Source: an uncultured virus (IMG/VR IMGVR_UViG_3300027847_001048) (Duplodnaviria > Heunggongvirae > Uroviricota > Caudoviricetes). From it: 64,000 nucleotides of DNA. This document shows, piece by piece, positions 17,228-46,301 of the stretch (the stretch's first letter is position 1; each line of letters starts with the position of its first letter). The translations under genes and the position numbers were made by a program. The notes under the pieces are model-generated. The model saw only the letters and a program-made list of their open reading frames with translations. It was not told where the DNA came from and did not search any database. Location of the stretch: IMG/VR virus record IMGVR_UViG_3300027847_001048, one strand, 5' to 3'.

Positions 17228-17244
17228 TATGAGTGGCGGGAAAC

Positions 17245-20200
17245 ATGGCTGAAGATTTCGGAAATGGCGCAAGTCGCACACTCTCTGCACTAATGAGGCA
17301 GTTTTCTGCCGTTGTATGGCAGAAGGGTAAGCCGCCGCTGGATTCGGAACTCAACTTGATGAGTCAAGTTGAGGCCGAACGACTGCGGCAAACTGTCAAA
17401 TCTGTGATGCACAGTGGATGGTTGATTGATCCGACGAGGACCAAGATTGACTTCAGTTGCTCTAAAGACTGGAGCAACTACTTCGTCTTCGGTAAGCAGA
17501 AGTCAGGAGAAAAGGAACCTCTCCTGTTTGCTAACGTCAATGGATGGGTCATTCCCGTTGCTGGCACTTTCACCGAGACTGAAGAAGAGAAGACAAACCG
17601 CATCCGTCTGAACCCGCCACCCGCAACAGACAGCCGGGTGGATTTGGTGTTCTTGGAGGCTTGGCAGACCCTTGTCGCCCCCAACCCGAGCGAGGCCAAC
17701 AAGCCCGCCGTGGATAAGGTCTGGAAGTACGGCAACGTCGAGTACGGCGGGTCGAATATCGAAGACGATCTGGAAGACCCGACTATTGGGTTCGAGACCT
17801 CCGAAAGATGTCAGATTCAATACCGCATCCGTGTCTATGGATCGGGTGCAGGTCTTGGTGCTGGTGTAGCTCTCGATAAGTATCCAGACGGTCTGGGAGA
17901 CCTCAACATTCTTGGTCAAGGTACACAGGACGCTCCTGTGGCTGGTTCCTCCTTCGCTAATGTGCGGGAGAAGTTGGATGACCCATCGCTTTGGCGTGCC
18001 GGTGACGGCGACCCAAACAATGCCTTGGGGACAATCGACGGCTACGTCTATGCTATCCCCCTCTGTGCAATCTTCCGGCGTAACACTAATACCTTTGTGG
18101 CTGTGACTTCGGCAGGGAACCCAAACCAGAACGGTGCCCTTGATCGAAACCCATCTACGGGACAGCTTGCGGACCCCCGAGAAGGGGCCAAGGCTCTTGC
18201 AGTTCCGACTTTGTTGGACAACCTGCTGGCCGATTCCTTGGGGACAGTACAAGTAACTGGTCTCATTGGATCTGGGTTTGATGACACGTTGCATCTCCCC
18301 GAGGGTCTTTTCCTTCAGGTTGAAGATGAGATCATCGGGATTTCAGAAGTAGACGTTACTACGACCCCCCCGACCATTACGTTAGAAGACCGTGGCCGTT
18401 ACGGAACCCACGCCACGACGCATTTAGCGGGCTCACCGATTCAGTTCTTCAGTGTCCGACCTGATGGGTTGTTCGCTGATGAGGTTCATCCAACTGATAT
18501 CTTGGATCTCCGACGAGCCGTGACTCCCGGCGAGTGGGATTACCACCGTCTTCTTGAACACAACATCGCCGCCCTGGCGAAGAATGACCTGCACTCCACC
18601 CATAAGAGGTCGGCTGCGGGAGATACCGAGGGTCCAGTCGTTGCCGAAGTCAGCTACATGCTGGCGGACGGGTCCACAGATGTTCCAAACCATACAGAGG
18701 GCTTGGACGGTCCAGACGGCACCCGAATCATCTTCTCCGATGCTTGCAGTGTGCAACAGCAGGTGACGTTGCTTCTCGATAATGATGCCACGCTCACCCA
18801 AGGTGCAGTCAATGATGAGTTCGACTCCAATGTTGGTTGGGATGTAGCACCAGACTTCAAGCCGAGCGGCTGGGTCAATAACGAGGGCAGCACCGGCTCT
18901 TGGACCAACGGATCAGTCATCTTCCTCCATATTGGGGGCGAAGACGGTAGCGGAGGCGCACGGGCGTCATTCCGTTCTGGGTCCGACAAGAAGGTGCGGT
19001 TCGTCACTCCCAAGGAACATTGGAAGACGGGCTACCCTACGGTAAACCCTCTGAACGGCAACCAATACCCCGTCACAGTGCAGTTCTTGGGGGCACCGGC
19101 TCACCAGCCGATGGCTCTCTATGAGCAAGACGTGGACGCCCACGCACTCAAGAAGCACCCGGGTCCGATGTACCCCTATCGACGGCTCAACTTCGAGTCC
19201 CCTTTCATCGTGTTGGGTGGTCTGCTTGATTCATCTTTACGCATGACTGGTCTGGCCGTTGCGACCAAGTACACCGCTATTGCACAGGCGGAGGGCTTCT
19301 GTGAGATCCAAGTTGATGTGAACTTCGACACCGAAGGGGTGTACCACACTACGGAACACGGACAGTTCGAGAACGACCCCTCCACGGTTTCTGCCCCACT
19401 CTTGCGGGGTAGCCGAACGCTATACGGCATGTTGACAGACGAGGGGAGAGACCGCACAGGCAAGTCTTCCGAAGTCTATGTAGTGCTTTATGGGGACAAT
19501 GCGTCAGGGGGTCGAGTCAACAATGGCTGCTTCCGAGTCATTGGGGCCGGGACAGCCGGATACACGGAGCACTCTGCTGATGATGCCTACTCTATTGTAG
19601 TGGCCCCTCTTGATCCAGAGTTCACTACGTTCGACACCACCACGGGCGGTGTTGTCACTGCCGAGTTCCGTTCCCAGTACACCAATGCCGAAGACGGTAA
19701 TGGACTGACAACCGGAGACCCTGCTCTTTGTATCGTATTGACCGACCTTGGCGGGTTGGCCGACCATCCTTGGAACAAGGCTCTTCTTGACGATACTGTT
19801 GGGGACTTTGATTATTCGTTCCCAATCGACGCAGCAAGTGGTCTGGTGAAGATCGACGCCAAGCTCGTTCTATCGACTACGCTGCTTTATCACCCGGGAC
19901 GTGGAGCTATGGCTCGCTTGCCGGATAGCCTCACCCGGTTCTCGCTAACAAACGCTGATAGCACCTACCTACGACAGTCTCCTGGGGCGCTTGACACCAC
20001 TTTCTCTGCGGCGTCTGGAACCCCAGGGAGCGAAACCTTCTTCGATCCAGTTCATGTCCAGCTTTGGAATCGTTTGCCGTCTTTGGGTTGGGATGCTCCC
20101 GTTGCTCCTGGCTACGGTGGCCGCATTGTTGCGAACACAGAGCAGGATCGAGACAACGAGTTGTTCATCGACCGTGGCAGTAAGACGGTAGTCTTCCGTC

Positions 20201-23200
20201 CGTACCGTTACCGTCAAATGACGTTGAACGGTATTACGGTTGGTCTGAACACTACTGTTGATCCCTGTGGTGGGGCAGTGGTTGAAGTGGGGCTGGACGG
20301 TAACTACCTCTACCCAGACACTACTCCCAAGGACGCCCACGAACTGTTCACAGGTAGCCTCGCTACTGGCAAGAGAATGGGGTTCCCCATTCCCACAGAG
20401 GCCATGCCTCGGTTTGGTCGCCAGGACATCCCTTACTTCCAAGACATCACAGGGAATGGGTCGGGGACTTTCCTTGCGGGCATCAACCATATGTTCTGCG
20501 ATTCGACCACGTTGAACAACGAGGTCTTCAAGATCATCGGTGGAGAGGACAACGAATCGAGTGGCTCCCAGGTCAAGCCGATATTCTTCCGAACCGGCAC
20601 CCCCCAGGATTATGGGCACGGCGGCACAGTCATCGGAATAGTGGACAACAAGCCCTACTACGAAGCTCGCAAGGTCTCTGATATCGATGAGTCCACCGAG
20701 AAGGGTACGGTTGTTCGCACCAAGTTCCGAACGGTTGTCTCCAGTGATTTTGGTCCCGGTCTTGACGGTATCCAACTGCCGCCGTATCTCGGAGTGGCCC
20801 GGTTGTACGGGGTCTACGACTACGATGATTACCAGTCGAAGGGTGGCCGCAGCTTTGAGTCAGATCGTGTGACTCTTGAGAATGACCCGGCTACGAATCT
20901 TCTACGCACGGATGCTACCGAGCAAACCTTGTTCATCATGCGGGATGGCGCACTCGATCTCACAGGCGAGACCGGGGACCATACCTATGTGATCCCCTCC
21001 AACGTCATCGATGTGACGCTCTCTCCGAAGCACAAGCTCAACGACTCGACCTCCCAAAAGGAGACTTTCAGGGACTTCGAGTACGTGGTTGAGATGACAG
21101 TGTTCGGGTTCTCCAAGGAATGGATCAACGGGAACAACTACGTGCTGGCTCGCCGTCACGATGCCCAAGGCAACTTGGTTTCCGATGGGGACAACGAAGA
21201 GTTGGAAGACCTCTCGATGGTCTTCCCCTGTGCTGCTTCACTGAACAGCGCAGTGTATTCACTCTACAACCGCACGGTCTACCAGGGTGACCCCTACATG
21301 ACCCGTGCTGGTGCGGTCCGAACGGTCTCCGACTATGAGCATCGCTACGGACAAGTCTCTGTTGCAAATGCCTACGAGCTTGTTCACCCGATCCAGCAGT
21401 TCAACGACCAGGGTGAGGCGCAGGTCCAGCTTCCGAACCCTCGGATGTTTGAAGTCTTGGCCTCTATGGACTTCTACACCACGCTTGGGACAGGTAAGAT
21501 CGGCGGCCACCTCTATCCAGGCACGTTGTTGGATGTTGGCTACACGGAAGACACCCTGAGTTCTTCTCGAAGAATCCCTGGATCATCCGACGACTCGGCA
21601 TGGCGAGTTCTGACCCGTGCCTTCACCGAAGGCCAGAAGACCAACAGCAACCGAGCAGAGGCAGAGATTCGGTTCCTTCCCGGCTCTGTTAGTGCGATGG
21701 ACGGGGCAACGATCACGATCACCGATCTGGACGGCCTCTCCTTTGACTTTACAGCGAGGGCTGCCCTTACTGATGAGGTTGTACTTGGAGAAGACGAGTT
21801 CCGTATCGTTACAGGATATCGTCCCCTCGTTTGGACCCAACAGTTGGACTTCCCCGCCCTGCTCCCCGGCGAAAGCACCTCTTTCACTATTGGTGCAGAC
21901 GGTAGCGGAGAGAACTACGAGACCCACATTCTGAATAACGCAGGACTTCGGTTCGGGAATACCGTAGACATCAATGCGATGACGGGGGCTGATTACCCAG
22001 AGAACTTGATAGTCCAGGCGCTCGTTACGAACGATAACGTCCTCAAGGTTACCGCTACCAACTCGGCGGCGATGGCTGTTCGACATCCTTCAGTCAAGGC
22101 CCAGCACGCATGGGACGGCACGGATGGGGTGGCCTCTACAGGAAGCGCCCCGGTCACAATCTTGGCGCACACTGCCCACACCAGCACTGCAATCACAGTA
22201 GCCGGGGCGGGTCTCAATGATGTGGTTCTGGTCAACATTCACGGGATAGACAGTGATAACGATGACGAATGGGACGGCCCCGTCTCTGGGATCATCGCTG
22301 ACGGCTATGTCTCTCAAGCGGGTGAGGTGAAGATACGTCTCACGAACACCACGGATGCAGATATCGCATTAGAAGATTCTGCTGTGACTTACGAGATTCG
22401 GGTCTTCTTCGCAGACGTGGAAGCCACAACGACTGATCCAGTCGCCCAGAACTTTGTCATTCGGGCTCTCGATACGCATCGGGACGTTGAACTCACAGCC
22501 AACCGCTTTGCCATAGCTGTCAATCGACGCACTGGAATGGGGAACGCTATTCAAGCGATGGCCGCTCATGCTGACATGGTTCGGTTGATTGGTGTTCCCA
22601 CAGGTGCCGAAGGCAACGGCTTGAAGGTAACGACCACCAGGGACAACTCGGGTGCCAACGTGGACGCCGCAAAGACGGTAGCGAGACTGTTTCAGATCGT
22701 TGTACCGCACTCCAACAACCTGCCCATTGATTCGTTCCTGGGGGCGGTGTTTACATCAGCCTATTTCCGAGGTGGTGCAGACATCCCTATGAACGCCGGG
22801 GACGGCACCAGTCAGATGGGTCTGACTGGAATGACGGACCGGTTCCCCTTGGGGATCTTGCTGCAAGACAGTGATTTCGTGTGCGAGAATCCGCTGAACG
22901 ACCAAGCTACGGCGATGAAGACCAGTCCTTCGGGGTTACGTCCGATTCAGACCATGCTTCCTTTGTCGGAACGTGGTGAAGAACACGACCGATTCATGGG
23001 TGAGCCGGGTGAGATGGTCAGCATGTCAGACGGCTCTATCTTGGTTTACACGCCGTTCCATGATGCCAACCGTCCGACAGGCACCCACAACTACCGTGTC
23101 TATCGTGGTGGCGGGGCCGTGATGGCGATGTCAGGCAAGAACCCAGGTGGCCCGGTGGATTGGGTCAGTGAGTCTCTGATCGCCCCCCTGAAGCCCGTTC

Positions 23201-23529
23201 TGAAGGCCGGAGCACTGTGTTGCAAGGCTATGTTGGTTCGGAACTTCGTGGAAGCCGCTTTTGCCGACCCAATGGAGGTCTCGGCGGGTGACGAGATCCA
23301 GATGATTATGATCACTCATGGCGTCCTTGGATCGGGGAACACCCAGAACAACGGCGTGATGATTGCTGGCACAATCAGTCCCACTGGTTATGGTGAAGGC
23401 TATGCTGCCGCAGACCGGTATCGTATCGACGGTAAGCCCATGATGGGCTCTGCCCACTCCAGGGCACATCGTCCGTTCGATGCTGTTGAGCCAGTGCCGC
23501 TCATTACTGATAACGATCCTATCGAGTAG
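17245..23529 (+). CDS. Large (~2094 aa) probable baseplate/tail protein
   Basis: N-terminal WQKGKPPLDSELN and RVDLVFLEAW resemble N-termini of phage baseplate/tail-fibre-base proteins. ATG at 17245 preferred over GTG at 17233. Confidence 0.7.
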   Translation: MAEDFGNGASRTLSALMRQFSAVVWQKGKPPLDSELNLMSQVEAERLRQTVKSVMHSGWLIDPTRTKIDFSCSKDWSNYFVFGKQKSGEKEPLLFANVNGWVIPVAGTFTETEEEKTNRIRLNPPPATDSRVDLVFLEAWQTLVAPNPSEANKPAVDKVWKYGNVEYGGSNIEDDLEDPTIGFETSERCQIQYRIRVYGSGAGLGAGVALDKYPDGLGDLNILGQGTQDAPVAGSSFANVREKLDDPSLWRAGDGDPNNALGTIDGYVYAIPLCAIFRRNTNTFVAVTSAGNPNQNGALDRNPSTGQLADPREGAKALAVPTLLDNLLADSLGTVQVTGLIGSGFDDTLHLPEGLFLQVEDEIIGISEVDVTTTPPTITLEDRGRYGTHATTHLAGSPIQFFSVRPDGLFADEVHPTDILDLRRAVTPGEWDYHRLLEHNIAALAKNDLHSTHKRSAAGDTEGPVVAEVSYMLADGSTDVPNHTEGLDGPDGTRIIFSDACSVQQQVTLLLDNDATLTQGAVNDEFDSNVGWDVAPDFKPSGWVNNEGSTGSWTNGSVIFLHIGGEDGSGGARASFRSGSDKKVRFVTPKEHWKTGYPTVNPLNGNQYPVTVQFLGAPAHQPMALYEQDVDAHALKKHPGPMYPYRRLNFESPFIVLGGLLDSSLRMTGLAVATKYTAIAQAEGFCEIQVDVNFDTEGVYHTTEHGQFENDPSTVSAPLLRGSRTLYGMLTDEGRDRTGKSSEVYVVLYGDNASGGRVNNGCFRVIGAGTAGYTEHSADDAYSIVVAPLDPEFTTFDTTTGGVVTAEFRSQYTNAEDGNGLTTGDPALCIVLTDLGGLADHPWNKALLDDTVGDFDYSFPIDAASGLVKIDAKLVLSTTLLYHPGRGAMARLPDSLTRFSLTNADSTYLRQSPGALDTTFSAASGTPGSETFFDPVHVQLWNRLPSLGWDAPVAPGYGGRIVANTEQDRDNELFIDRGSKTVVFRPYRYRQMTLNGITVGLNTTVDPCGGAVVEVGLDGNYLYPDTTPKDAHELFTGSLATGKRMGFPIPTEAMPRFGRQDIPYFQDITGNGSGTFLAGINHMFCDSTTLNNEVFKIIGGEDNESSGSQVKPIFFRTGTPQDYGHGGTVIGIVDNKPYYEARKVSDIDESTEKGTVVRTKFRTVVSSDFGPGLDGIQLPPYLGVARLYGVYDYDDYQSKGGRSFESDRVTLENDPATNLLRTDATEQTLFIMRDGALDLTGETGDHTYVIPSNVIDVTLSPKHKLNDSTSQKETFRDFEYVVEMTVFGFSKEWINGNNYVLARRHDAQGNLVSDGDNEELEDLSMVFPCAASLNSAVYSLYNRTVYQGDPYMTRAGAVRTVSDYEHRYGQVSVANAYELVHPIQQFNDQGEAQVQLPNPRMFEVLASMDFYTTLGTGKIGGHLYPGTLLDVGYTEDTLSSSRRIPGSSDDSAWRVLTRAFTEGQKTNSNRAEAEIRFLPGSVSAMDGATITITDLDGLSFDFTARAALTDEVVLGEDEFRIVTGYRPLVWTQQLDFPALLPGESTSFTIGADGSGENYETHILNNAGLRFGNTVDINAMTGADYPENLIVQALVTNDNVLKVTATNSAAMAVRHPSVKAQHAWDGTDGVASTGSAPVTILAHTAHTSTAITVAGAGLNDVVLVNIHGIDSDNDDEWDGPVSGIIADGYVSQAGEVKIRLTNTTDADIALEDSAVTYEIRVFFADVEATTTDPVAQNFVIRALDTHRDVELTANRFAIAVNRRTGMGNAIQAMAAHADMVRLIGVPTGAEGNGLKVTTTRDNSGANVDAAKTVARLFQIVVPHSNNLPIDSFLGAVFTSAYFRGGADIPMNAGDGTSQMGLTGMTDRFPLGILLQDSDFVCENPLNDQATAMKTSPSGLRPIQTMLPLSERGEEHDRFMGEPGEMVSMSDGSILVYTPFHDANRPTGTHNYRVYRGGGAVMAMSGKNPGGPVDWVSESLIAPLKPVLKAGALCCKAMLVRNFVEAAFADPMEVSAGDEIQMIMITHGVLGSGNTQNNGVMIAGTISPTGYGEGYAAADRYRIDGKPMMGSAHSRAHRPFDAVEPVPLITDNDPIE

Positions 23530-24471: not shown

Positions 24472-24510
24472 AAAAAAGCCCCTTACCGGTTCGCCGGTAA
24501 GGGGCTTTTT
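24472..24510. terminator. Bidirectional rho-independent terminator
   Basis: AAAAAAGCCCCTTACCGG-TTCG-CCGGTAAGGGGCTTTTT: perfect hairpin with A/T tails on both sides, between convergent genes. Confidence 0.9.
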
Positions 24511-24514
24511 AGTT

Positions 24515-24835
24515 CTAACTGTCGTCTTGTTTTCGCTGATAAGACTTGCGGTGGAAGACCGCTTGGGATGCGTGTTCACGGTGCGGCTGGTGATTCCGGT
24601 CTTCTGGGATTTCCAGGGTGTACCGCATCTTCCGCTTACCCCCAACCGCTGCAAGGAGCGTTCGTAACGCATCTGCGTGGGAACCCCCTCGACCGATGAC
24701 TTTGCCTACGTCTCTGGGATCTACTGTGAGTTCGAGAATACAGGTGCGTGACCCAACGACTTCCAGACACGATACTTGGTCTGGATAATCTACGATCTCT
24801 CGGATTACCACTTCAACTAACTGCGGCACATCCAT
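24515..24835 (-). CDS. khpA: KH-domain RNA-binding protein, KhpA/YlqC family
   Basis: IVDYPDQV...LELTVDPRDVGKVIGRGG...ALRTLLAA matches the KH_4 (KhpA) pattern, including the GxxG loop. Confidence 0.85.
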   Translation of the reverse strand: MDVPQLVEVVIREIVDYPDQVSCLEVVGSRTCILELTVDPRDVGKVIGRGGSHADALRTLLAAVGGKRKMRYTLEIPEDRNHQPHREHASQAVFHRKSYQRKQDDS

Positions 24836-24921: not shown

Positions 24922-25710
24922 TTAGAGCCAAGGCCGCTCTCTCCAGATACGACGGTAACTTCTCATTTGGTGGCGGGCGTACCTGCGGGCACCTTCACCG
25001 CTGCCATTATAGATCCTAAAGGCTTCTTGAGTATCGCCTCGGCTGCGTTTGTTGCACCGCCAGAGGATATAAGCCGCCGCACGTAGGTTGGTGAGGGGTT
25101 TCCACAGATCTTCCTTGGAGGAAATGCCAAGCTCCTTCTTGAGTGTTTCAAGCCACACTCGGGGGTAGATCTGGGTTAGCCCAATCTCCCCGACTTTACC
25201 AAAAGCCTTCTGTGAGCACTTCGATTCTCGGTACACAGTCAAAGCAAGAGCTTTCGGGTTGATGTCATATTCCCCGGCAGCTTGAAGAATCAAGCTGTCG
25301 AAGTTTTCGGGTGGTTGGATCTTGCAGTGTTCCGAGAAGCGTTCCTCGACTATTTCCCCGGCAACCTCCAGACAATCGTCTGCTTCATCACCTCCGCAGC
25401 ACATTGTCGTGACGCAACAATCGGGGCACTTGGCACAGTTGTCGAGGATGTACCTCTCATGCCATGAGAGGTCTTCCCAAGAAGGATCACTTATGTCCTG
25501 CGTGGAGACCTCGGTAGCCTCGACCGACACTTCACTTGGGAAGTAGTATTCCGGTTCCTCAACTCCGAGACTGATCGTGTACTCGCCAACATTGGAGAGT
25601 CCAGCGGTCCCACCACCGGGTTGGTGATAAGCGTTGTTGGTGTCACCCGCATCAGCGTTACCGGCACACGCATACAATAGGAACGAGAGGCATAGCGATA
25701 TAGTTCTCAT
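24922..25710 (-). CDS. Lytic transglycosylase (SLT domain) with lipoprotein-like signal
   Basis: YRES (catalytic Glu), GEIGLTQI, NLRAAAYIL and YNG motifs; N-terminal hydrophobic stretch ending in LYAC. Confidence 0.85.
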   Translation of the reverse strand: MRTISLCLSFLLYACAGNADAGDTNNAYHQPGGGTAGLSNVGEYTISLGVEEPEYYFPSEVSVEATEVSTQDISDPSWEDLSWHERYILDNCAKCPDCCVTTMCCGGDEADDCLEVAGEIVEERFSEHCKIQPPENFDSLILQAAGEYDINPKALALTVYRESKCSQKAFGKVGEIGLTQIYPRVWLETLKKELGISSKEDLWKPLTNLRAAAYILWRCNKRSRGDTQEAFRIYNGSGEGARRYARHQMRSYRRIWRERPWL

Positions 25711-25807
25711 CAGACTTCTCCGTGCAGCTTCCTTCAGACCCCAACCATACTCACTGGAGTTCAGAAGTTACCTACCACCTGCTATTGAAGGAAAACCTGG
25801 GAAGCCC

Positions 25808-26182
25808 TTATGCGAGCCCCTCTTTACGAAGAGCCGCACGAAAATCTGCATCGGAGCGGGCTTCTTGACGGGTGCGGAGTCCGTAGTCACGGGGGCGAGC
25901 CCGTTGTGAACCTTGGGAGTTCCATCGCTGACCTTTACGGAATCGACCCGCTTGCTGATCGCAAGCACAGGTGACCAGATCACGGGGCGAAACCCCCGGC
26001 ACCCAATCACGGTTGAAAGCACCATCCTCCCCGACTCGACGGACGTGGATAGCCAGATGTTTACGCCACTCACGAAGAGTACGCTCTCGTTCCAATGCTG
26101 CACGACGCATGGCGTCTTCTCCTATCATTTCCAGAACGGCGAACCGTTCAAGGGCTTGGGGGTCGATGCCCACGGGCGGCAC
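25808..26182 (-). CDS. Hypothetical Arg-rich protein
   Basis: ORF lies downstream of the minus-strand motif copy at 26284-26311. Start codon uncertain. Confidence 0.5.
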   Translation of the reverse strand: MPPVGIDPQALERFAVLEMIGEDAMRRAALERERTLREWRKHLAIHVRRVGEDGAFNRDWVPGVSPRDLVTCACDQQAGRFRKGQRWNSQGSQRARPRDYGLRTRQEARSDADFRAALRKEGLA

Positions 26183-26283
26183 CTTGATTTTTGACGGAAG
26201 CAGCCCACCTGCTCCCTAAACCATGCACATACGTTGGTGTTCTCCTACGTGTTGAGGTTCGAGGTTATCTCCGCCTCTCACAA

Positions 26284-26311
26284 CGTCTACCCCCGGTATC
26301 CGAAAGGTAAC
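26284..26311 (-). promoter_or_regulatory. 28-bp bipartite motif, copy 1 (putative promoter)
   Basis: GTTACCTTTCGGATACCGGGGGTAGACG on the minus strand. Confidence 0.75.
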
Positions 26312-26355
26312 AATAAATCATAAAACCCAATGATTTCAAGGACTTACGAAAGTTT

Positions 26356-26383
26356 GTTACCTTTCGATCCGTCAGGGTAGACG
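26356..26383 (+). promoter_or_regulatory. 28-bp bipartite motif, copy 2
   Basis: GTTACCTTTCGATCCGTCAGGGTAGACG. Confidence 0.75.
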
Positions 26384-26384
26384 T

Positions 26385-26472
26385 TGTGAGAGCGATGGCA
26401 TGGACGAAGCTGGGTGTAAGCCCCGCAGGGAACGTAAGTCGGGATGCCCGAAGTGCCGTCACCTCTCTTACA
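26385..26472 (+). ncRNA. Candidate small structured RNA 1
   Basis: The 5' and 3' ends pair (UGUGAGAG/CUCUUACA and GAUGGCAU/GUGCCGUC). Internal GGU-GUAA-GCC and UCGGG/CCCGA hairpins. Bounded by two motif copies. Confidence 0.55.
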
Positions 26473-26480
26473 CAGCCCCG

Positions 26481-26508
26481 GTTACTTTTCGGTACCCGGG
26501 GGTAGACG
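26481..26508 (+). promoter_or_regulatory. 28-bp bipartite motif, copy 3
   Basis: GTTACTTTTCGGTACCCGGGGGTAGACG. Confidence 0.75.
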
Positions 26509-26627
26509 AAATGAGGGTAGTCCGATTCGGTCGGAAACAGGGTCCAGAGCGAAGCCACCACCGAGAGGTCTGGGGCCGAGTGTTGACGGACAGGGAGAGA
26601 GTAGGCCGCTCCCAACTACCATCATTT
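26509..26627 (+). ncRNA. Candidate small structured RNA 2
   Basis: Terminal stem AAAUGA-G-GGUAGU/ACUACC-A-UCAUUU encloses several hairpins (CCGA/UCGG, ACC-GAGA-GGU, GGGAG/CUCCC). Confidence 0.6.
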
Positions 26628-26632
26628 TCCTC

Positions 26633-26660
26633 GTTACCTTTCGAGAGGCGAGGGTAGACG
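26633..26660 (+). promoter_or_regulatory. 28-bp bipartite motif, copy 4
   Basis: GTTACCTTTCGAGAGGCGAGGGTAGACG, 31 nt before ATG 26692. Confidence 0.75.
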
Positions 26661-26691
26661 AGGCAGGACACACAGCGAGAGGAAACAGAAC

Positions 26692-27663
26692 ATGGGTTCA
26701 TCAGACCACATCAAAGTTGCGGACCTTCACGGGATGCCCGTGCCAGACTTTTTCACCACCTGCTATTCGCTGACGGCGAGTCACTGCTGCGTGTGTGCAA
26801 CCCCTCTCCGAGATGCCTTGAGCGTCCAGCTAATGATCGGCCCTACCTGCCGTAAGCGGTACGGCTACCTCGATCTCCCCGAGAACCCCAACATGCCCGT
26901 GGCGTTGGGTCTGGTCGCTGCGTTGGAGCAGCAGGACAACATCAAGCCGATGGTGGTCCGCTACCTGCTCGCCAACCGGGACGACCCCCGAATGATGTGC
27001 AACATCTTGACGGCGTTCGCCAGCGTCCACTACTCCGACAAGACGTTGGTCTTGGCGGCTTCCCCCATCATCCGTGCGCTCGGTTACCCAAAGCTCGCTG
27101 AAAAGCTGGAGTGGGACCGCAGCGTGGTCCAGATCCGCAAGGATTGGGCAGCGAAGCGCATCGAAGTCTACACCCCCTACAACCGCCAGTTCGTTGTGGA
27201 CCTCCACAAGCTGACTGGACAGTCTGCCGAGAAGGTCTACAACGAGCGCAAGGACCGCAGCGGCAACGTCCGTCAGGGCAAGTTCAAGTGCTGGTCTATA
27301 CCGGAGCGATTCGAGGCCGATCTCATGGCCCTGATTCGGGGCTACTACGAGGGCGAGGCCATTTATGACGGTGAGGGCGTGAGCGTCATCCCCGGCCCCA
27401 CAGATGCCGAGAAGGCTGTCGCCGTGAAGGTGAAGGTCTCCCTGGCTTCCCAGGTTCGCATCGAGCCTGGAAGTACCTCCCGTGCCCGAGTGGCCGTGTT
27501 CAGCCCGCCCCCGTGGGAAGACGAGGCGTGCAAGGCGTTCGTGGACGGTGTTCGGAACATCCGTGGTCGCTCGTTCGACCGTGACCGCAAGTGCTGGACG
27601 GTTCCTGCCGCTGCCTTGCAGCGAGTCGAAGACTTGAAGGCCCAACATTTCGGAGCCGAGTAA
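26692..27663 (+). CDS. DUF6011-like Zn-finger protein with C-terminal HARP-like repeats
   Basis: CCVCATPLRDALSVQLMIGPTC (DUF6011 pattern); TPYNRQFVVDL and FVDGVRNIRGRSFDRDRKCWTVP (HARP/DUF5710-like). Confidence 0.65.
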   Translation: MGSSDHIKVADLHGMPVPDFFTTCYSLTASHCCVCATPLRDALSVQLMIGPTCRKRYGYLDLPENPNMPVALGLVAALEQQDNIKPMVVRYLLANRDDPRMMCNILTAFASVHYSDKTLVLAASPIIRALGYPKLAEKLEWDRSVVQIRKDWAAKRIEVYTPYNRQFVVDLHKLTGQSAEKVYNERKDRSGNVRQGKFKCWSIPERFEADLMALIRGYYEGEAIYDGEGVSVIPGPTDAEKAVAVKVKVSLASQVRIEPGSTSRARVAVFSPPPWEDEACKAFVDGVRNIRGRSFDRDRKCWTVPAAALQRVEDLKAQHFGAE

Positions 27664-27698
27664 GCCAGTTACTTTCTCGGAGTAAGCCAGTTACTTTC
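27658..27698 (+). repeat. 19-bp direct repeat (22-nt period) duplicating the upstream box of the motif
   Basis: GAGTAAGCCAGTTACTTTC at 27658 and 27680. Confidence 0.85.
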
Positions 27699-27717
27699 CA
27701 ACCCCCGAGGGTAAACG
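27690..27717 (+). promoter_or_regulatory. 28-bp bipartite motif, copy 5
   Basis: GTTACTTTCCAACCCCCGAGGGTAAACG, 22 nt before ATG 27740. Confidence 0.7.
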
Positions 27718-27739
27718 TCGCAGAGGAAGGAATAGCACT

Positions 27740-28264
27740 ATGTCATACTACACCATCCAAGCAGCAGCAGAGGCCGCAAGACTGGGTATCCCCTGGAAGG
27801 TCCGTCTGGAATACACGGGCTACAACGACAAAAACGCCAGCGGCAACAGCTACAAGTTCTGGGAGGCCAACGGCGTTCCAGGCTCTACGGCTGTCACCAT
27901 TCGCTACGGGCGCATCGGCTCGGCAGGGCGACCGCTCCAGAAGGATTGGAGCTACTTCGTTGAGAAGTTTCCCGAGAAGCAGGCCAAGGGGTACGACTAT
28001 GATTCCCGTACCCAAAGTGCCGTGGATCAGCCCGAGGCTACGCCCGTCACGACTCTGGCAGACGGCACGATCTCCGAGATTGAGGTCAGCCAAGTGGTCG
28101 CATCGACCTTCGGCGCAGGCCCCTACGGTCAGATCCGCAGCGTTCTCCGCTCGGTGATGAGCGGTACGGAGTGCTGGTCGGCCTATGACGAACACGGCAC
28201 CCTCATCATGCAGTTGCCCGAGGCTGGCGTGGAAACCATCAAGGAAGCGGTACTGGCAGTATGA
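27740..28264 (+). CDS. WGR-domain protein
   Basis: SYKFWE...VTIRYGRIGSAG...KQAKGY pattern. Confidence 0.8.
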   Translation: MSYYTIQAAAEAARLGIPWKVRLEYTGYNDKNASGNSYKFWEANGVPGSTAVTIRYGRIGSAGRPLQKDWSYFVEKFPEKQAKGYDYDSRTQSAVDQPEATPVTTLADGTISEIEVSQVVASTFGAGPYGQIRSVLRSVMSGTECWSAYDEHGTLIMQLPEAGVETIKEAVLAV

Positions 28265-30180
28265 GCAAGCAAGTTACCAGCCTCGCAGCCAAGCTCACCC
28301 AGGCACGGGACGCCTACTACAACGGCAAGCCCATCATGTCTGACCTTGAGTTTGACGTGATGGAAGACAAGCTGCGTAAGCTCGATCCAGGCCACGCCTT
28401 TTTCTCCAAGGTCGGCGCTGCTCCTGTGAGCGGTTGGTCCAAGGTCACGCACAAGATCCCCATGACCAGCTTGAACAAGGCCCAAGACGCCGACGATATG
28501 CGAACGTGGGGTAACGGTCGCACTGGCTACATCGCTGCCGGGGAGTTCATCTGGATTGAAAAGCTGGACGGGATCTCGATCTCACTCCGCTACGACAAGG
28601 GCATCCTGACCCAAGCTGTGACCCGTGGTGATGGCTCTGTGGGCGAAGACATTACCCGCAACGTCAAGCTAATGAAGGGTCTCCCGAGTCAACTCGCTGT
28701 TGATCCATCATGGTCAGGCTACGTTCGTGGCGAGATTGTCTGCCTCCGGTCTGACTTCGATGCTCACTTTCCCGGTGAGTCCAACCCTCGCAACACGGCT
28801 TCCGGTACTGCCAAGCGTCAGTCCGATCCACGTCCATGCGCTCACCTGACGGTGATGCCGTTCCAGTGCCTTCCAGACACGGGAATGTACGCCACCAAGA
28901 AGGGTGAGCTTACTGCCCTGCAATCCTTGGGGTTCACCCATACCCCTCAATGGTGGACAAGGGACTCCCTCACAGCCATCTTCGACACTTACAACGAGTA
29001 TGTGGCTACGAGGCGGGACAATCTGGACTACGAGATCGATGGGCTGGTGGTCAGCCTCAACGACAACCAGAAGTGGGAAGATGCCGGGGAGAAAAACCAT
29101 CGCCCCGCAGGATCAATCGCCTTCAAGTTTCCCCATGAGTCAGCCACAACCCGGCTCCAAGATATCATCTGGCAGGTCGGCAACTCCGGTCGTGTGACCC
29201 CCGTGGCCGAGTTTGATTCGGTGCCACTGGCAGGGGCCAACGTCCGTCGAGCGAGCCTCCACAACATCAGCAACATCGGACGCATCGCAAGCGAGGCAGG
29301 ACACACGGCACTGCGGAAGGGTGATCTGATCATGGTCAGCCGCCGCAACGACGTGATTCCATACGTCGAAGCCCTCGTCACGCCCAAGACAAGCGGTGCT
29401 TTGTTGTCTGTACCTCCCACCGACTGCCCGTGCTGCGGCACGGCGTTGCAGATGGACGGTGAGTATCTGGTCTGCAACGGCACGATGTGTTCGGCCCAGG
29501 TGTCGGGCAGCATCAAGCGTTGGGTCAAGAAGGTCGGCATCCTCGATTGGGGGACCAGCGTGATTGACGTTCTGGTGGACTCTGAACTCATCAAAGATCC
29601 AGCAGACCTCTACAAGCTCGACGAAACCACTCTCTCGGCTGTCCAACTTTCGGGTCGGCGGGTCGGCTCTGGTGCCAAGACCATGCTCGCCAACCTCCAC
29701 GCCAAGACCGATCTCCCCGTGAACGTGGTGGTCGGCTCGCTCGGCATCGACCTCATGGGTCGGTCAATGGTCAAGAAGCTGGTTGACGCTGGCTACGACA
29801 CCCTGGACGCTCTGGCGACCGCTACGGTCCAAGAGTTTGCTTCGGTGCCCGGTATGGGTCAGACGAAGGCAGAAGCCTTCCATAGTGGCTTCCACTTCCG
29901 CTCTGGTCTCATCAGCAAGCTGGTGATGAACGGTATCACCATCAAGGCTCCCTCTACTGGCTTCCTCAAGGGCATGACAGTCTGCATGACAGGCTTCCGT
30001 GACGCTGCGATGCACGATGCGATTGAAGCCGCAGGCGGGACCATAAAGTCGAGCGTTGTTCGTGACCTCGATTACTTGGTCGCCAAAGACCCAAGCTCTA
30101 CAAGCGGTAAGGCCAAGAAGGCCCGTGATCAACTCACACACATCGTCAGCATCGAAGATATGCAAAGCCTCTTGAGCTAA
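28261..30180 (+). CDS. ligA: NAD-dependent DNA ligase
   Basis: YYNG..IMSD.EFD, EKLDG adenylation motif, TRGDG.VGEDIT, VRGE, DGLV, Cys4 Zn finger, HhH region, C-terminal BRCT. Confidence 0.95.
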   Translation: MSKQVTSLAAKLTQARDAYYNGKPIMSDLEFDVMEDKLRKLDPGHAFFSKVGAAPVSGWSKVTHKIPMTSLNKAQDADDMRTWGNGRTGYIAAGEFIWIEKLDGISISLRYDKGILTQAVTRGDGSVGEDITRNVKLMKGLPSQLAVDPSWSGYVRGEIVCLRSDFDAHFPGESNPRNTASGTAKRQSDPRPCAHLTVMPFQCLPDTGMYATKKGELTALQSLGFTHTPQWWTRDSLTAIFDTYNEYVATRRDNLDYEIDGLVVSLNDNQKWEDAGEKNHRPAGSIAFKFPHESATTRLQDIIWQVGNSGRVTPVAEFDSVPLAGANVRRASLHNISNIGRIASEAGHTALRKGDLIMVSRRNDVIPYVEALVTPKTSGALLSVPPTDCPCCGTALQMDGEYLVCNGTMCSAQVSGSIKRWVKKVGILDWGTSVIDVLVDSELIKDPADLYKLDETTLSAVQLSGRRVGSGAKTMLANLHAKTDLPVNVVVGSLGIDLMGRSMVKKLVDAGYDTLDALATATVQEFASVPGMGQTKAEAFHSGFHFRSGLISKLVMNGITIKAPSTGFLKGMTVCMTGFRDAAMHDAIEAAGGTIKSSVVRDLDYLVAKDPSSTSGKAKKARDQLTHIVSIEDMQSLLS

Positions 30181-30322
30181 TGGCTCGCAGGTTCGCCCGC
30201 TTTGATCTTGGCGGGACGACCGTATTCTTCATGGGCAAAGTTTCACCCCAAAGTTTGCCCCTCAAACATTGAAAAACGCACTACTTCCAAGCATTTACGC
30301 TGGGTCTCTCAAATCGAAGTTA

Positions 30323-30351
30323 TTGACGGAGCCCCTCGAACGTGATAGGGT
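30323..30351 (+). promoter_or_regulatory. Sigma70-like promoter
   Basis: TTGACG-N17-TAGGGT with a TG extended -10, upstream of the GHKL gene. Confidence 0.45.
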
Positions 30352-30458
30352 GGTGTATGGGGTTAGGTTAGCTAACTCCCCGAAGAACCTGGGTTTTTCG
30401 GTCTTGAGCTTGATTCCGGTTCGGTCGGGGTCGTAACTATGCAAACATTGAGGAAACA

Positions 30459-31988
30459 ATGGGAAACAAACACGTCGAAGTCGATCTGAAAGGATTGGCG
30501 AAACTGCTCGAACGAAAGGGTCTGCACTGGCTGGCTCTTGAACTGCTCCAGAACGCTCTGGACACAAAGACCACCGTTATCGATCTCACGATGACGGCGA
30601 TCCCCAACCGCCCGATGGTGGAGTTGGTGATCACGGATGAAGATCCAGATGGGTTCCTCGACCTGTCTCACGCCTACACGCTCTTCGCCGAGTCTACGAA
30701 GAAGGACGACCCCGAGCTTCGTGGTCGGTTCAACTTCGGAGAGAAGTTGGTCCTCGCATATGCACTTGCGTATGGGGGAGAGGTGGAGATCTCCACGACC
30801 AAGGGAACGATCCTGTTCGATGATAGTGGACGGCACTCCAAGCGCCTCAAGCGTTCCGAAGGTAGCCAAGTCCGAGTCATCGCCAAGCTGACCCGAAGCC
30901 AGATGGCCGAGGTCGAGGCAGCGATCCTCTCGATCATCCCTCCCGCCGCCGTCGTGGTCACGTACAACGGGAAGCCACTCCAGACCCGTGTCCCGGTTCG
31001 GACCTTCACTGCGACCTTGCCTACGGTGAAGTCAGACAACGAGGGCATCCTACGTCCCACGAAGCGGAAGACCGAGGTCGAGGTCTACGAAGTCGTGGGC
31101 GATGAGAAGCCCACGATCTACGAGATGGGCTTGCCCGTCGTGGAACTGCTGGGTGACGACAAGTACCACGTCAACGTGAAGCAGAAGATCCCTCTCAACA
31201 TGGATCGGGACAACGTGACCCCGGGGTACTTGAAGAATGTGCGTGTCGAAGTGATGAACGCCACCCATGATCTACTCGACAAAGAAGAGGCCGCATCAAC
31301 CTGGGCTACGGAAGCTCTCGGTGACGACCGGATTGGGCAAGCCGCTGTCTCGTCAATCTTGGACCAACGCTTTGGAGAGAAGCGGGTTATCGCTGACCCC
31401 TCCGACCCCGAGGCTACCAAGGAAGCTGCCCGTGATGGCTGGACAGTCATCCCTGGAGGCACCTTTGGCGGGAAGCAGTGGGGCAACATCAAGCAGAACA
31501 CCAGCCGAGGCGGAACCCGCCCTGCTGGTCGTGTGACTGGCACGTCCTTTGGGACATTCAGTGCTGCCCGAAACCCTGTTCTGGACCCAAGCAAGTACAC
31601 CGATGGGATGAAGGAGTTGATCCCGTACATCATTCAAGTGGGCTTCCTGCTTACGGGTGGGGACATCGACGTGATCATCACGGATGATCGGGCTTGGGGT
31701 CATTCGGCCAACTACGAGGGCAGCGTGCTGACCCTCAACCTTGTTCGGAACGGACACAGCTTTTTCAACGACAAGACCCCCGCAGGGTTCGTCCGAGTCA
31801 ACTCGCTGTTGATCCATGAGTTCGCAACCCACGTCACCCGGGACCGACTCTCCAGCCAGTACCATTCGACCCTCGCTACCTATGGAGCCAAGCTCGCCGT
31901 GGCGGTAGCCACCATCGGCGCAGACCTTACGGACGCTTGGAACCTGGGCACGGGTTCCACTGCGGTCGATTGGGACGCCCCTATTTAG
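30459..31988 (+). CDS. GHKL (HSP90-like) ATPase with C-terminal metallopeptidase-like segment
   Basis: ELLQNALD, DEDPDG, RGRFNFGEK and EGSQV Bergerat-fold motifs; C-terminal LLIHEFATH. Confidence 0.75.
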   Translation: MGNKHVEVDLKGLAKLLERKGLHWLALELLQNALDTKTTVIDLTMTAIPNRPMVELVITDEDPDGFLDLSHAYTLFAESTKKDDPELRGRFNFGEKLVLAYALAYGGEVEISTTKGTILFDDSGRHSKRLKRSEGSQVRVIAKLTRSQMAEVEAAILSIIPPAAVVVTYNGKPLQTRVPVRTFTATLPTVKSDNEGILRPTKRKTEVEVYEVVGDEKPTIYEMGLPVVELLGDDKYHVNVKQKIPLNMDRDNVTPGYLKNVRVEVMNATHDLLDKEEAASTWATEALGDDRIGQAAVSSILDQRFGEKRVIADPSDPEATKEAARDGWTVIPGGTFGGKQWGNIKQNTSRGGTRPAGRVTGTSFGTFSAARNPVLDPSKYTDGMKELIPYIIQVGFLLTGGDIDVIITDDRAWGHSANYEGSVLTLNLVRNGHSFFNDKTPAGFVRVNSLLIHEFATHVTRDRLSSQYHSTLATYGAKLAVAVATIGADLTDAWNLGTGSTAVDWDAPI

Positions 31989-32010
31989 AGTCAGGGGCGG
32001 TCAAGGGGCA

Positions 32011-32418
32011 GTGGACAGGGTAAGGTGTTCTCCCATCACGGAGTTTACCGTGCCCTCCGCTGGCCTCGACCTTTTCCTCAAGTCCCCTCACTTCAAGCTC
32101 CGTATCACCGAAGCCGACAGCTACGCCCAGGAGGTTGGAAGAAACCCGTGGGCGGTTCGTGTCGCCTGGGTCTCTTTGACTGAAGGTCCGTTGGTGGCTC
32201 GCCGCTACCTCAAGAAGCGACGGGCTTACCAAGACACAGCCCCGTACCAGATGTACTGCCGCCTCATCGATGAAGGGATCTTCTCGGAAGACCCTCAAGG
32301 GGTCTACTATGAGTCTGCTCCAAAGTGGGAAGACGACGCTGGCACGATGGCATGGTTCAACACCATCATTCTGATTGCAGAAGGCATGGAGGTGCCACAA
32401 GACTTCCCTCGGCGGTAG
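32011..32418 (+). CDS. Hypothetical protein
   Basis: Co-directional ORF filling the gap between genes. Start uncertain. Confidence 0.5.
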   Translation: MDRVRCSPITEFTVPSAGLDLFLKSPHFKLRITEADSYAQEVGRNPWAVRVAWVSLTEGPLVARRYLKKRRAYQDTAPYQMYCRLIDEGIFSEDPQGVYYESAPKWEDDAGTMAWFNTIILIAEGMEVPQDFPRR

Positions 32419-32461
32419 CCTATCTATCGACCACTGTTTGTGGAACTGTGGAGGTAAGTCT

Positions 32462-33232
32462 GTGCAAAGGATCAAGCTCATACGATACGGCACTCTGACC
32501 GTCACCCCCGATACCAGGGATGTCCTTGAAGCTCTTGGCAACAAGGCCACAGAGGTAGGGTGGCGAGTTGGGTTTGATCCGAGCCCGTGGGCAGAGGATG
32601 ACGGAGCGCCCCGGTATCTTTCCCTCTCCCCCGCAGGCAGAGGCTTCAAGATCGAAGCCCTGCATGACCAGATCACAGCGCCCACAGCCTGTCTGGCGGC
32701 TCTCTGGAGCATGACCGTCCCACTCGGGTTGACTCCGTGGAACCGCTATCCGGTCCCCGGTCACAAGGACCACCAGTTCCACAACTTCGGGCCGTGGAAG
32801 CCTCTTATGGACCGCCTCTTGGCAGAAGGTCGTGGACACCTCGCATGGCCGTCCGTCTGTTGTGCTGCCCAAGTAGATGCCGGGATATGGAAAGGCGACA
32901 AGACCGTGGAACGCTTTGTTCAAGCGCAGCTACATCGGATTGGGTACAACGTCGGACCAGTCGATGGGATCATCGGTCCCCGTACAGCACAGGCTATCGA
33001 GACGATGGGCTTGTCTGGCATCCCTCTCAAACAGATTGCCGAAACTCTGGTTGACCGGGAGCCCCCCACCCCTTCCAAGCGGGATTCTTCTACCGGGCAC
33101 ATCGTTGTCCCGGGTCGTTCACTTTCCGTAGCGAGCTTCGGGGATGTACGGACGGTACAGACCAACAACGGAGTCAGCTTGGATGTTCGTGGGCGGGGTC
33201 GAGTTGTTGTAGATATCGGGGGGAGTCGATGA
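32462..33232 (+). CDS. Peptidoglycan-binding-domain protein with a degenerate peptidase-M15-like N-terminus
   Basis: GGAGGT RBS + GTG at 32462; VQAQLHRIGYNVGPVDGIIGPRTAQAI matches PG_binding_1. Confidence 0.7.
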   Translation: MQRIKLIRYGTLTVTPDTRDVLEALGNKATEVGWRVGFDPSPWAEDDGAPRYLSLSPAGRGFKIEALHDQITAPTACLAALWSMTVPLGLTPWNRYPVPGHKDHQFHNFGPWKPLMDRLLAEGRGHLAWPSVCCAAQVDAGIWKGDKTVERFVQAQLHRIGYNVGPVDGIIGPRTAQAIETMGLSGIPLKQIAETLVDREPPTPSKRDSSTGHIVVPGRSLSVASFGDVRTVQTNNGVSLDVRGRGRVVVDIGGSR

Positions 33233-33846
33233 TTGACCACCTATCATCCCTCTGGTCCAGACTCACGGGCAAGCCCCCCAAGATCCCTGAACCTGTGGAT
33301 ACTCCCAGCGCCGAGAAGATCCTCAAGAAAGTTGGGACCGAGATGCACAAGAAGCTGCACTCGACCTACGCTTCCTTGGCTCTGGCGTACATCGTAGAGG
33401 AATGTCAGAAGAAGGACTTTGAGACACCCCAGATTGCTTACTTGCTGTGGGTTCTCTACAAGTCGCAGAAGACATGGCCCACCGTAGATCGACACCAAAA
33501 GCGGTGTTTGGTTTTCTTCCTCAATCTCATCGTGAGGGCAGGGAAACTTCCCAACTACAAAACCGTGATAGAACCCCAAGATGGGGAGACCGAACTTCAG
33601 ATCAATGAGATCATCAAGACACTGGCGAAACGCTCAATAGACCTAAAGCAGATAGTTTTCAGTGGGTTAGTAGATATCTTGAAGAAGTACCAGAAGGAGT
33701 GGACGAGCCTTCATTCAGAGACCGCCTCCAAAGATATGCTCGGATATTTCTCGTACTCTTTCGGGGATCAGGCGAAGAATCGTTGGACCTTGTGGGGTGG
33801 TGAACCCGGGGATACTCTGCGACAGTATGCTCTCTTGAACTATTGA
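33229..33846 (+). CDS. Hypothetical protein
   Basis: ATGA overlap with the previous stop codon. Confidence 0.65.
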   Translation: MIDHLSSLWSRLTGKPPKIPEPVDTPSAEKILKKVGTEMHKKLHSTYASLALAYIVEECQKKDFETPQIAYLLWVLYKSQKTWPTVDRHQKRCLVFFLNLIVRAGKLPNYKTVIEPQDGETELQINEIIKTLAKRSIDLKQIVFSGLVDILKKYQKEWTSLHSETASKDMLGYFSYSFGDQAKNRWTLWGGEPGDTLRQYALLNY

Positions 33847-33895
33847 CGGGGGTAGATTCTCTTCGTGGCCGGGTAGATGCGGTAAGGAGGGAACT

Positions 33896-39160: not shown

Positions 39161-39252
39161 TTCAACTGTTACATGACGACTGCGTTGAACGCATGAAAGC
39201 TATGAAGGAGGCAAGCGTAGGGAGCATCATCTGTGATCCTCCCTACGGATAA
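39157..39252 (+). CDS. 31-aa methyltransferase N-terminal fragment carrying the catalytic DPPY motif (not in ORF track)
   Basis: ATGA overlap with the previous gene; translates MIQLLHDDCVERMKAMKEASVGSIICDPPYG*. Confidence 0.85.
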   Translation: MIQLLHDDCVERMKAMKEASVGSIICDPPYG

Positions 39253-39254
39253 AT

Positions 39255-40052: not shown

Positions 40053-40075
40053 CAGTCGAGGAACCGGGGTGCCCT

Positions 40076-40857: not shown

Positions 40858-40898
40858 CGAACCTATGGAACCTTTGATTAGTAATCGAAGGAGTCAAG

Positions 40899-41794: not shown

Positions 41795-41872
41795 CCTGCG
41801 GTTCCCTGCCTTTTAGTCGGGGTGACTTCTGCTGCGGTCTATCTGATGCCATACCTACTCCATCTAATAGAC

Positions 41873-41915
41873 AAATAAGAAAGGCCAGCCAGGAACGAGT
41901 CCCAACTGGCCTTTC
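41873..41915 (-). terminator. Rho-independent terminator after the FliO-like gene
   Basis: Minus strand GAAAGGCCAGUUGGGA/UCCUGGCUGGCCUUUC followed by UUAUUU; G-U pairs favour the minus strand. Confidence 0.7.
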
Positions 41916-41935
41916 AAGGAGCTTTGGTTGTGGGG

Positions 41936-42579: not shown

Positions 42580-42599
42580 CCAACGAACTGAAGATTAGA

Positions 42600-43079: not shown

Positions 43080-43094
43080 AGTCCCTGGAGGGGT

Positions 43095-43970: not shown

Positions 43971-43998
43971 TGTCTACCCCGGTAGCTCGAAAAGTAAC
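43971..43998 (-). promoter_or_regulatory. 28-bp bipartite motif, copy 6
   Basis: GTTACTTTTCGAGCTACCGGGGTAGACA on the minus strand. Confidence 0.75.
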
Positions 43999-44063: not shown

Positions 44064-44091
44064 TGCTTACCCCTAACTTTCGGAAAGTAAC
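44064..44091 (-). promoter_or_regulatory. 28-bp bipartite motif, copy 7 (GTAAGCA variant)
   Basis: GTTACTTTCCGAAAGTTAGGGGTAAGCA on the minus strand. Confidence 0.7.
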
Positions 44092-44114: not shown

Positions 44115-44142
44115 GTTACCTTTTGATCCCCCAGGGTAAGCA
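44115..44142 (+). promoter_or_regulatory. 28-bp bipartite motif, copy 8 (GTAAGCA variant)
   Basis: GTTACCTTTTGATCCCCCAGGGTAAGCA. Confidence 0.7.
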
Positions 44143-44151: not shown

Positions 44152-44289
44152 CGGGAGGGAACACCAACCGGCTCTGACGGTGACTGTAAGCTCGGTCCAC
44201 CGAGGGGATGCACCCGGCTCACACCCGGCTCTGCCCCAGCGGTCCAGCCCATGCAGCACACGCCAACTAAAAGAGTGTTCCCGACCCCG
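44152..44289 (+). ncRNA. Candidate small structured RNA 3, with repeated CCGGCUC
   Basis: Closing stem GGGAACAC/GUGUUCCC plus CGGG/CCCG; CCGGCTC x3 and CGGTCC x2; bounded by motif copies 8 and 9. Confidence 0.55.
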
Positions 44290-44316
44290 TTACTTTTCGA
44301 GGGGCGAAGGTAGACG
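44289..44316 (+). promoter_or_regulatory. 28-bp bipartite motif, copy 9
   Basis: GTTACTTTTCGAGGGGCGAAGGTAGACG, 33 nt before ATG 44350. Confidence 0.75.
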
Positions 44317-44647: not shown

Positions 44648-44675
44648 GTTACTTTCCTGCCCATCAGGGTAGACG
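44648..44675 (+). promoter_or_regulatory. 28-bp bipartite motif, copy 10
   Basis: GTTACTTTCCTGCCCATCAGGGTAGACG, 18 nt before ATG 44694. Confidence 0.75.
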
Positions 44676-46273: not shown

Positions 46274-46301
46274 GTTACTTTTCGACCGTTGAGGGTAGAC
46301 G
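46274..46301 (+). promoter_or_regulatory. 28-bp bipartite motif, copy 11
   Basis: GTTACTTTTCGACCGTTGAGGGTAGACG, 18 nt before ATG 46320. Confidence 0.75.

Follow-up and report, generated by a model that had tools for sequence, protein, structure and literature searches.

Whether the short segments that separate tandem copies of a phage promoter are genes in their own right is the question raised by a locus in a 64,000-nt stretch of DNA (hereafter, the window) from an uncultured virus of the Caudoviricetes. The window is part of a huge phage and encodes a DNA polymerase A, a DnaB-like helicase, an NAD-dependent ligase, a thymidine kinase, and many unknown genes. The initial annotation described three co-directional copies of a motif, with segments of unique sequence between them, and a repetition of this layout at a second site; this was confirmed, the copies starting at 26356, 26481, and 26633 (spacing of 125 and 152) and at 44115 and 44289. 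Its coordinates omit the divergent copies at 26311(-), 44091(-), and 43998(-), together with a fourth ORF-less unit at 43999-44059(-). The window thus holds two back-to-back hubs, 26311(-)/26356(+) and 44091(-)/44115(+), and four ORF-less units of 93, 120, 142, and 61 nt, counted from the putative +1 (Table 1).

The motif, with the consensus GTTACYTT-N11-RGGTARRC, occurs in 11 copies on both strands of the window, compared with a mean of 0.13 and a maximum of 2 in 30 third-order Markov simulations, and eight of the 11 sit at the two hubs. A pyrimidine-purine (YR) step occupies motif positions 32/33, which lie outside the search pattern, in 27 of 27 distinct copies collected from the window and three further loci, and by the usual start rule this sets the probable +1 at motif position 33. 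We conclude that the motif is a genuine phage promoter and that, as deduced from sequence, its start site is fixed; the units are individually promoted as had been proposed, each with its own promoter and putative start. Behind the 11 window copies there follow an RBS and ATG within 60 nt of that start in six cases, ORF-less units in four, and a 169-nt leader in one. A sigma70 scan made no call on the motif, which we take to resemble SigB/SigF (Group 3) sigma promoters. Some copies have a stem-loop directly upstream, with no consensus common to these stem-loops. Promoter scans of viral and genome collections returned only the phage's own record or lone chance-like matches, and no real match to the two hubs was found among GenBank phages; G001 carries the window's 11 copies again, with hub regions 100% and 99.98% identical.

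Two further features of the promoter copies were observed. At 27668-27689, a 22-nt duplication gives a half promoter, consisting of the upstream box only, right before the copy at 27690. In addition, several of the tandem copies have their spacer or downstream box paired with the end of the preceding unit, such that the upstream box falls in a hairpin loop (window 26475-26503, 26629-26651, 44285-44306, and 43978-44003; G004 97998-98181).

Table 1. Promoters, ORF-less units, and adjoining features of the two hubs in the window (+1 positions are putative).
Feature	Position	Strand	Remarks
Likely terminator at the end of hub 1's left arm	24473..24510	-	Hairpin flanked on either side by T/A runs; from sequence, palindrome match
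KhpA-like KH-domain RNA-binding protein, last gene of left arm	24515..24835	-	GRGG loop; PF13083 64.9 bits, cut-off 32.1
SLT transglycosylase-domain gene, hub 1 left arm	24922..25710	-	
Hub 1 divergent promoter	26285..26311	-	+1 at 26279; 169-nt leader to ATG at 26110
Phage promoter, first of three tandem	26356..26382	+	+1 at 26388
Unit 1, 93-nt ORF-less transcript segment	26388..26480	+	Predicted 13-bp closing stem from +1, two inner hairpins; z -0.9; weak RBS only
Phage promoter, second	26481..26507	+	+1 at 26513
Unit 2, 120-nt segment	26513..26632	+	Predicted multibranch fold; z 0.0; one possible GTG micro-ORF start at 26580
Phage promoter, third	26633..26659	+	Short RBS-bearing leader to next gene
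323-aa DUF6011 protein, first gene of right arm	26692..27663	+	
Phage promoter before WGR-domain gene and NAD-dependent ligase	27690..27716	+	
Promoter with hairpin leader to 270-aa gene 43095-43907	43972..43998	-	
Unit 4, 61-nt ORF-less segment	43999..44059	-	Poorly structured; z 0.0
Hub 2 divergent promoter	44065..44091	-	+1 at 44059
Hub 2 promoter	44115..44141	+	+1 at 44147
Unit 3, 142-nt ORF-less segment	44147..44288	+	8-bp closing helix; best end-pairing among window units (p 0.02-0.03); z -1.1
Promoter with RBS leader to 97-aa gene 44350-44643	44289..44315	+	
Single promoter before 56-aa gene	44648..44674	+	
Single promoter before 184-aa gene	46274..46300	+	

The KhpA-like gene is presumably co-transcribed with hub 1, and tblastn found no match to it in 1.51 Mb of relatives. 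Elsewhere in the window lie ORFs of 5090 aa (1094-16366) and 2098 aa (17233-23529), the shorter lacking a Pfam match, and a lone tRNA-Asn gene at 48003-48078 (-) on the strand opposite to its neighbours. Cys/Asp-rich repeat proteins (PF11617) are encoded at 52414-54453 and 55684-56862, one of them with a vWA domain; such proteins are, we assume, typical of myxobacteria, a possible hint at the host.

The layout recurs at further hubs, where units are exchanged whole. A metagenome scan yielded 11 loci, of which two are hub 1 again, four are chance-like single matches, and five show two further hubs. One of these (L008, L010, and L017) has seven promoters, flanked on one side by an AAA+ gene and on the other by a long, divergently oriented acidic gene, which is read as the vWA partner of the AAA+ gene; the other (L012) matches hub 1 with 83% identity over 128 nt and differs in its units and genes. 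The tetranucleotide composition of L012 and L008 correlates with that of the window at 0.90 and 0.67 (relatives, 0.16-0.62), and L009 and L012 lie on one contig, which probably places the further hubs in this phage or a sister, an assignment that no sequence overlap proves. In total, 12 distinct units of 40-180 nt, largely devoid of ORFs and without extended similarity to one another, are strung between promoters spaced 72-212 nt apart, the centre of the repeat being variable. As the 12 are mutually unrelated, unequal crossing-over of one unit would not yield them.

Exchange of such units was observed directly. In L009, one unrelated 45-nt unit stands in place of the 79-nt unit, promoter, and 112-nt unit of L008, L010, and L017, with flanks 99.3-99.9% identical to those loci on both sides. 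Identity extends to one base past the upstream promoter and returns with the opening base of the downstream one; breakpoints at the promoter edges are explained by crossovers in the two conserved boxes, which at 8-9 nt are probably too short for an assembly join. The swap is a single event, seen in one of four assemblies. The two further hubs, the count of 12 units, the whole-unit swap, and the comparison across the clade given below are new here.

Several known systems invite comparison. In T4-like phages, the promoter early stem-loop (PeSL) elements have been described as repeated promoters that serve as crossover points for the insertion, deletion, and exchange of cassettes; they are sigma70-like, end in a Shine-Dalgarno (SD) sequence and start codon, and shuffle protein genes (PMC2839356, PMC4122927). 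The present promoter is likewise repeated and clustered in variable regions (eight of 11 copies at two hubs), and close relatives have likewise exchanged sequence with breakpoints in the element (L008 versus L009, one event). Unlike PeSLs, it is bipartite and of another type, neither sigma70-like nor T4 middle; an SD sequence and start codon are present behind gene-leading copies and absent behind unit-leading ones, and the stacked cargo is non-coding rather than protein-coding. Since the sigma70-type promoter and the SD sequence with start codon are both lacking, the system is not filed as PeSL. Coliphage T7 has three co-directional early promoters, A1-A3, in one fixed cluster read by host sigma70. 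As in that layout, promoters here are co-directional, about 125-150 nt apart, with non-coding spacers before genes and no terminators between; they differ from A1-A3 in their at least four hubs, phage-type consensus, 12 unrelated spacers, and exchange between strains. A CRISPR array or solitary repeat unit was considered and rejected, the repeat centre being variable, the spacing 72-212 nt, and no Cas family being present among 47 window proteins scanned. The literature search found no description of the promoter family or the units, and a word from unit 1 was absent from six supplementary files of PMC10690425 (files 1, 2, and 4 excluded).

Comparison with known RNA genes is similarly two-sided. 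Huge phages carry RNA genes, in the form of tRNA and tmRNA (PMC7162821), and in the related genome G029 the homologous promoter drives tRNA and tmRNA clusters; the units differ from these in having no Rfam family and no tRNA call by ARAGORN. Like a stand-alone sRNA gene, each unit has its own promoter and a putative start site, as judged from sequence; unlike one, it has no intrinsic terminator or defined 3' end that a canonical scan could find. KhpA and KhpB have been reported to bind bacterial sRNAs (10.1101/2023.10.30.564711), and the KhpA-like gene lies on the divergent arm of hub 1, whereas KhpB is absent among the 47 proteins scanned.

The RNA reading predicts structure, and the initial annotation held that each segment folds end to end beyond chance, which was not confirmed for its three segments alone. 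The minimum-energy folds of these segments do pair the 5' end with the 3' end, and this closure is significant for the three taken together (combined p of 0.024); the effect is nevertheless only modestly above chance, with no replication in the nine units outside that set (p of 0.22-0.34). The units' own-end pairing exceeded cross pairing in a permutation test (p=0.022), and at least seven expected end pairs were seen in 7 of 12 units versus 25 of 98 control stretches behind gene-leading promoters. Overall folding is ordinary: against shuffled controls, the three segments gave z of -1.09, -0.64, and -0.84 (-0.9, 0.0, and -1.1 from the putative start), the window units ranged from 0 to -1.4, and only two of the 12 units fell below -2, namely the 180-nt unit of L008 (z -3.7), which has a 30-bp closing stem with five G-U pairs, and a 55-nt segment (z -2.7).

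A canonical scan called no intrinsic terminator in 25700-27800, nor did it do so where units 3 and 4 end; the 3' ends may instead be processed ones. The covariance models of Rfam 15, run on the window and hubs, found only the tRNA-Asn and nothing on the units; weak miRNA and snoRNA matches fell on the divergent promoter pair. Searches of 1.5-1.6 Mb of relatives with blastn, nhmmer, and covariance models built on single sequences found no unit homologs on which covariation could be scored; these relatives are distant (4 of 10 neighbouring proteins tested also have no match there), and units 1 and 2 have no homolog in 50 clade records. With no terminator at hub 1, no significant folding in the window units, no family or homolog, and no covariation, the proposal of discrete functional RNAs was not upheld, and the suggested ribozymes, antitoxin mimics, and anti-CRISPR RNAs gained no support. 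RNA run X1 (0.20 of words) placed eight contigs of 151-249 nt at a depth of 2-4 on 25000-44900, none on the units and one at 26019-26267, behind the leftward promoter; being shallow, available as contigs only, and possibly containing DNA, this run is evidence neither way.

Resemblances among the units, and to known RNAs, were also sought. No shared motif survived correction (k-mers, family-wise P of 0.18-0.57; T-loop enrichment, P of 0.19), and a hairpin common to unit 1 and the 23S-like unit of L012 was matched in 1 of 200 shuffles but fails correction for the 66 pairs tested. That L012 unit holds a hairpin (1914-1933, - strand) equal to E. coli 23S rRNA 1275-1293 plus one extra G and followed by a U run; the match was reached in 1 of 3000 shuffles (family-wise 0.005), a significance that is overstated because shuffles break hairpins. 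As a general rule, rRNA mimicry was rejected, 11 of 12 units lying within the shuffle range against E. coli rRNA. Look-alikes of the hammerhead, RNase P, 5S, and group I/II RNAs, noted by eye, were dropped for lack of an Rfam match.

Relatives were found by way of the polymerase and the adjacent DUF6011 gene. The polymerase shares 53% identity with its counterpart in an uncultured phage of 485 kb and has 659 relatives at E<=1e-60 among 8000 candidates scored. Homologous promoters, each lineage having its own upstream box, gave 30 matches in G003, 59 in G004 (400 of 436 kb covered), 19 in G005, and 129 in G029, where 94 copies lead genes and others lead the tRNA and tmRNA clusters; the motif is absent from LR745208.1 (polymerase 53% identical), of which 145 kb contain no strong gapped motif. 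A sigma region-4 protein scored above the Pfam cut-off in four of five relatives tested, one of them as a sigma70-family protein, and no region 2 exceeded the cut-off in five records, so that the factor that reads the promoter is deduced rather than identified; no cognate sigma gene was located in the phage's own fragments. A candidate reader of the promoter family is a conserved protein of 201 aa (L253:1186-1791 and L258:1186-1791, from G029 and G004), which has two helix-turn-helix units resembling sigma region 4 and in which no region 2 was detected.

Promoter-led RNAs and leaders of several kinds were encountered in these relatives. In G029, promoters at C1:492758(-) and 501234(-) are followed by ORF-less units, 243 and 227 nt long, whose ends resemble terminators and which match no Rfam family, and the promoter at C1:491769(-), in L240, leads a transcript of about 60 nt that carries at its 5' end the anti-Shine-Dalgarno word ACCUCCUU, equal to the 3' end of E. 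coli 16S rRNA, and closes with a long hairpin and U run (z -7.1); it is a candidate 16S-tail mimic sRNA. In G004, an ORF-less transcript at C1:251178(+) (L106) has a T-arm-like 3' end and acceptor-stem-like end pairing, by eye, with no Rfam match, and a CTA-anticodon tRNA (Pyl per ARAGORN) lies downstream of one promoter copy at C1:241943-242033 (L094). About 800 nt with no obvious gene, by eye, precede an ortholog of gene 43095-43907 in L260 (G022:C1:43130-44030), and this gene-poor stretch may hold a large non-coding RNA. A 5' leader hairpin of the type GGGGC-AAAUGA-CCCC is found in 9 of 27 coding leaders in G003, with look-alikes in G005, G029, and L008:2706-2725; it is possibly a protein-binding or stabilising element of the clade.

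What, then, are the units? The sequences establish a phage promoter with an apparently fixed start, stacked units of 40-180 nt between the hub core and the first gene, and at least one swap of whole units. The reading that we tentatively prefer, with a probability of roughly 45%, is that the units are exchangeable mini-transcription units with a short non-coding RNA as cargo, in other words, small-RNA mini-genes. The lack of unit homologs, ordinary folding, missing terminators, and the presence of start hairpins in coding leaders all argue against an RNA function; the length of the units argues for it, since the tandem promoters of relatives need only 15-51 nt of transcribed spacer, and 90-180 nt exceeds what stacking of promoters requires.

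That stacking itself is the matter of interest is the strongest competing explanation, although we regard it as rather less than probable. Extra promoters would be kept to raise downstream transcription, and the segments would be spacers or 5' stabilising leaders moved by recombination. The ordinary folding and the absence of terminators at hub 1 are in keeping with this, and a spacing of 72-212 nt would suffice for separate polymerases. The best evidence comes from the AAA+/vWA hub: the AAA+ gene is matched in 14 of 50 clade records, and the divergent layout is kept in 8 of the 11 whose upstream DNA was read (the three weakest were left out). At the orthologous hub, G004 has 2+2 promoters with transcribed spacers of 15 and 35 nt, and G008 has 2+2 promoters whose 51-nt spacers duplicate one another, all of these spacers being unrelated to the L008 units; recurrence of stacking at one hub without conserved spacers supports dosage. 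No tandem promoters were seen by eye in the other six of these eight relatives (an automated repeat filter missed the G008 pair), and a tandem-promoter pattern built on another lineage's consensus with a 20-50 nt gap gave no match in the 50 clade records. Tandem ORF-less units are also far rarer per promoter match in relatives (2 of 59 in G004, 2 of 129 in G029, 0 of 30 in G003, and 0 of 19 in G005) than in the window (4 of 11), where they are longer as well, which goes beyond what dosage alone needs. Stacking does not account for units that are long and mutually unrelated, nor for an observed change that replaced units by new sequence and was neither plain loss nor duplication. Finally, upstream of the G029 ortholog of gene 43095-43907, a promoter leads a 227-nt unit, which ends in a long hairpin and U run, and such a terminator-like end would block rather than boost read-through; in G004, the corresponding position has a divergent promoter followed by an ORF-less stretch whose fold is not significant (z -0.7).

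It is unlikely, in our estimation, that the units are instead emptied gene cassettes, i.e., remnants of promoter-leader-gene modules in a hyperplastic region, with frames deleted or decayed, that are transcribed but neutral. Traces of such an origin can be found: purine-rich, RBS-like sequence starts most units; the unit behind L008 promoter 2674 resembles both the leader, with its hairpin, that precedes a gene of G005 (25 of 30 columns, E of 0.035) and the first codons of the next L008 gene (19 of 22 nt, E of 0.43); and RBS-ATG-stop minigenes occur in a G029 unit and in the leader behind 26311. Decay leaves unexplained, however, the 30-bp closing stem of the 180-nt unit and the own-end pairing signal (p 0.022). 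Moreover, direct repeats should delete neutral units, and yet the swapped-out pair is identical between L008 and L017 and between L017 and L010, which may be recent relatives.

As to coding content, four real genes gave anti-SD pairing of -6.0 to -9.8 kcal/mol, and by this reference the earlier statement that the segments contain no credible RBS-led ORF mostly stood: starts in units 1 and 3 pair at -4.1 kcal/mol or weaker, and in unit 2 one GTG, at 26580, reaches -7.0. That the units encode micro-proteins from weak or leaderless starts is nonetheless very improbable: this GTG opens 25 codons, RBS-like sequence precedes 21- and 40-codon frames in two L008 units, and an 85-codon frame spans 26400-26657, but the candidate frames continue through the next promoter, and the other starts pair at -4.7 kcal/mol or weaker.

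If the units are small-RNA mini-genes, their promoter would be read by a phage-encoded, sigma-like factor, and the RNAs would fold with paired ends. Their 3' ends would arise at a non-canonical stop signal, or by cutting of read-through transcripts at the closing stems and the U-rich promoter linker. Their role would then be that of trans-acting decoys, variable as a set, which engage RNA-binding proteins or nucleases of the host, possibly with help from the KhpA-like protein from the other arm of hub 1, a link suggested by position only. A more specific version holds that the phage has an integron-like repertoire of variable decoy RNAs, with cassettes bounded by the two promoter boxes, gained and swapped beside the hub core, and expressed with a phage-borne KhpA chaperone, at least one member copying a 23S rRNA hairpin; it is, on balance, doubtful. 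Any function of the RNAs is a candidate one, and the mini-gene, dosage, and emptied-cassette readings can each hold for different units.

The exact cassette swap extends PeSL-type shuffling past the T4-like phages. Even if the units are not functional RNAs, the promoter family is still a useful key to these genomes, given its fixed start and an upstream box specific to each lineage. If they are, huge phages would own an RNA arsenal of fast turnover that escapes gene callers and Rfam, and the promoter rule would allow candidates to be listed directly across a clade represented by more than 650 polymerase sequences in the protein search. A decoy repertoire, if true, would be the RNA counterpart of the swappable palettes of anti-defence proteins in large phages.
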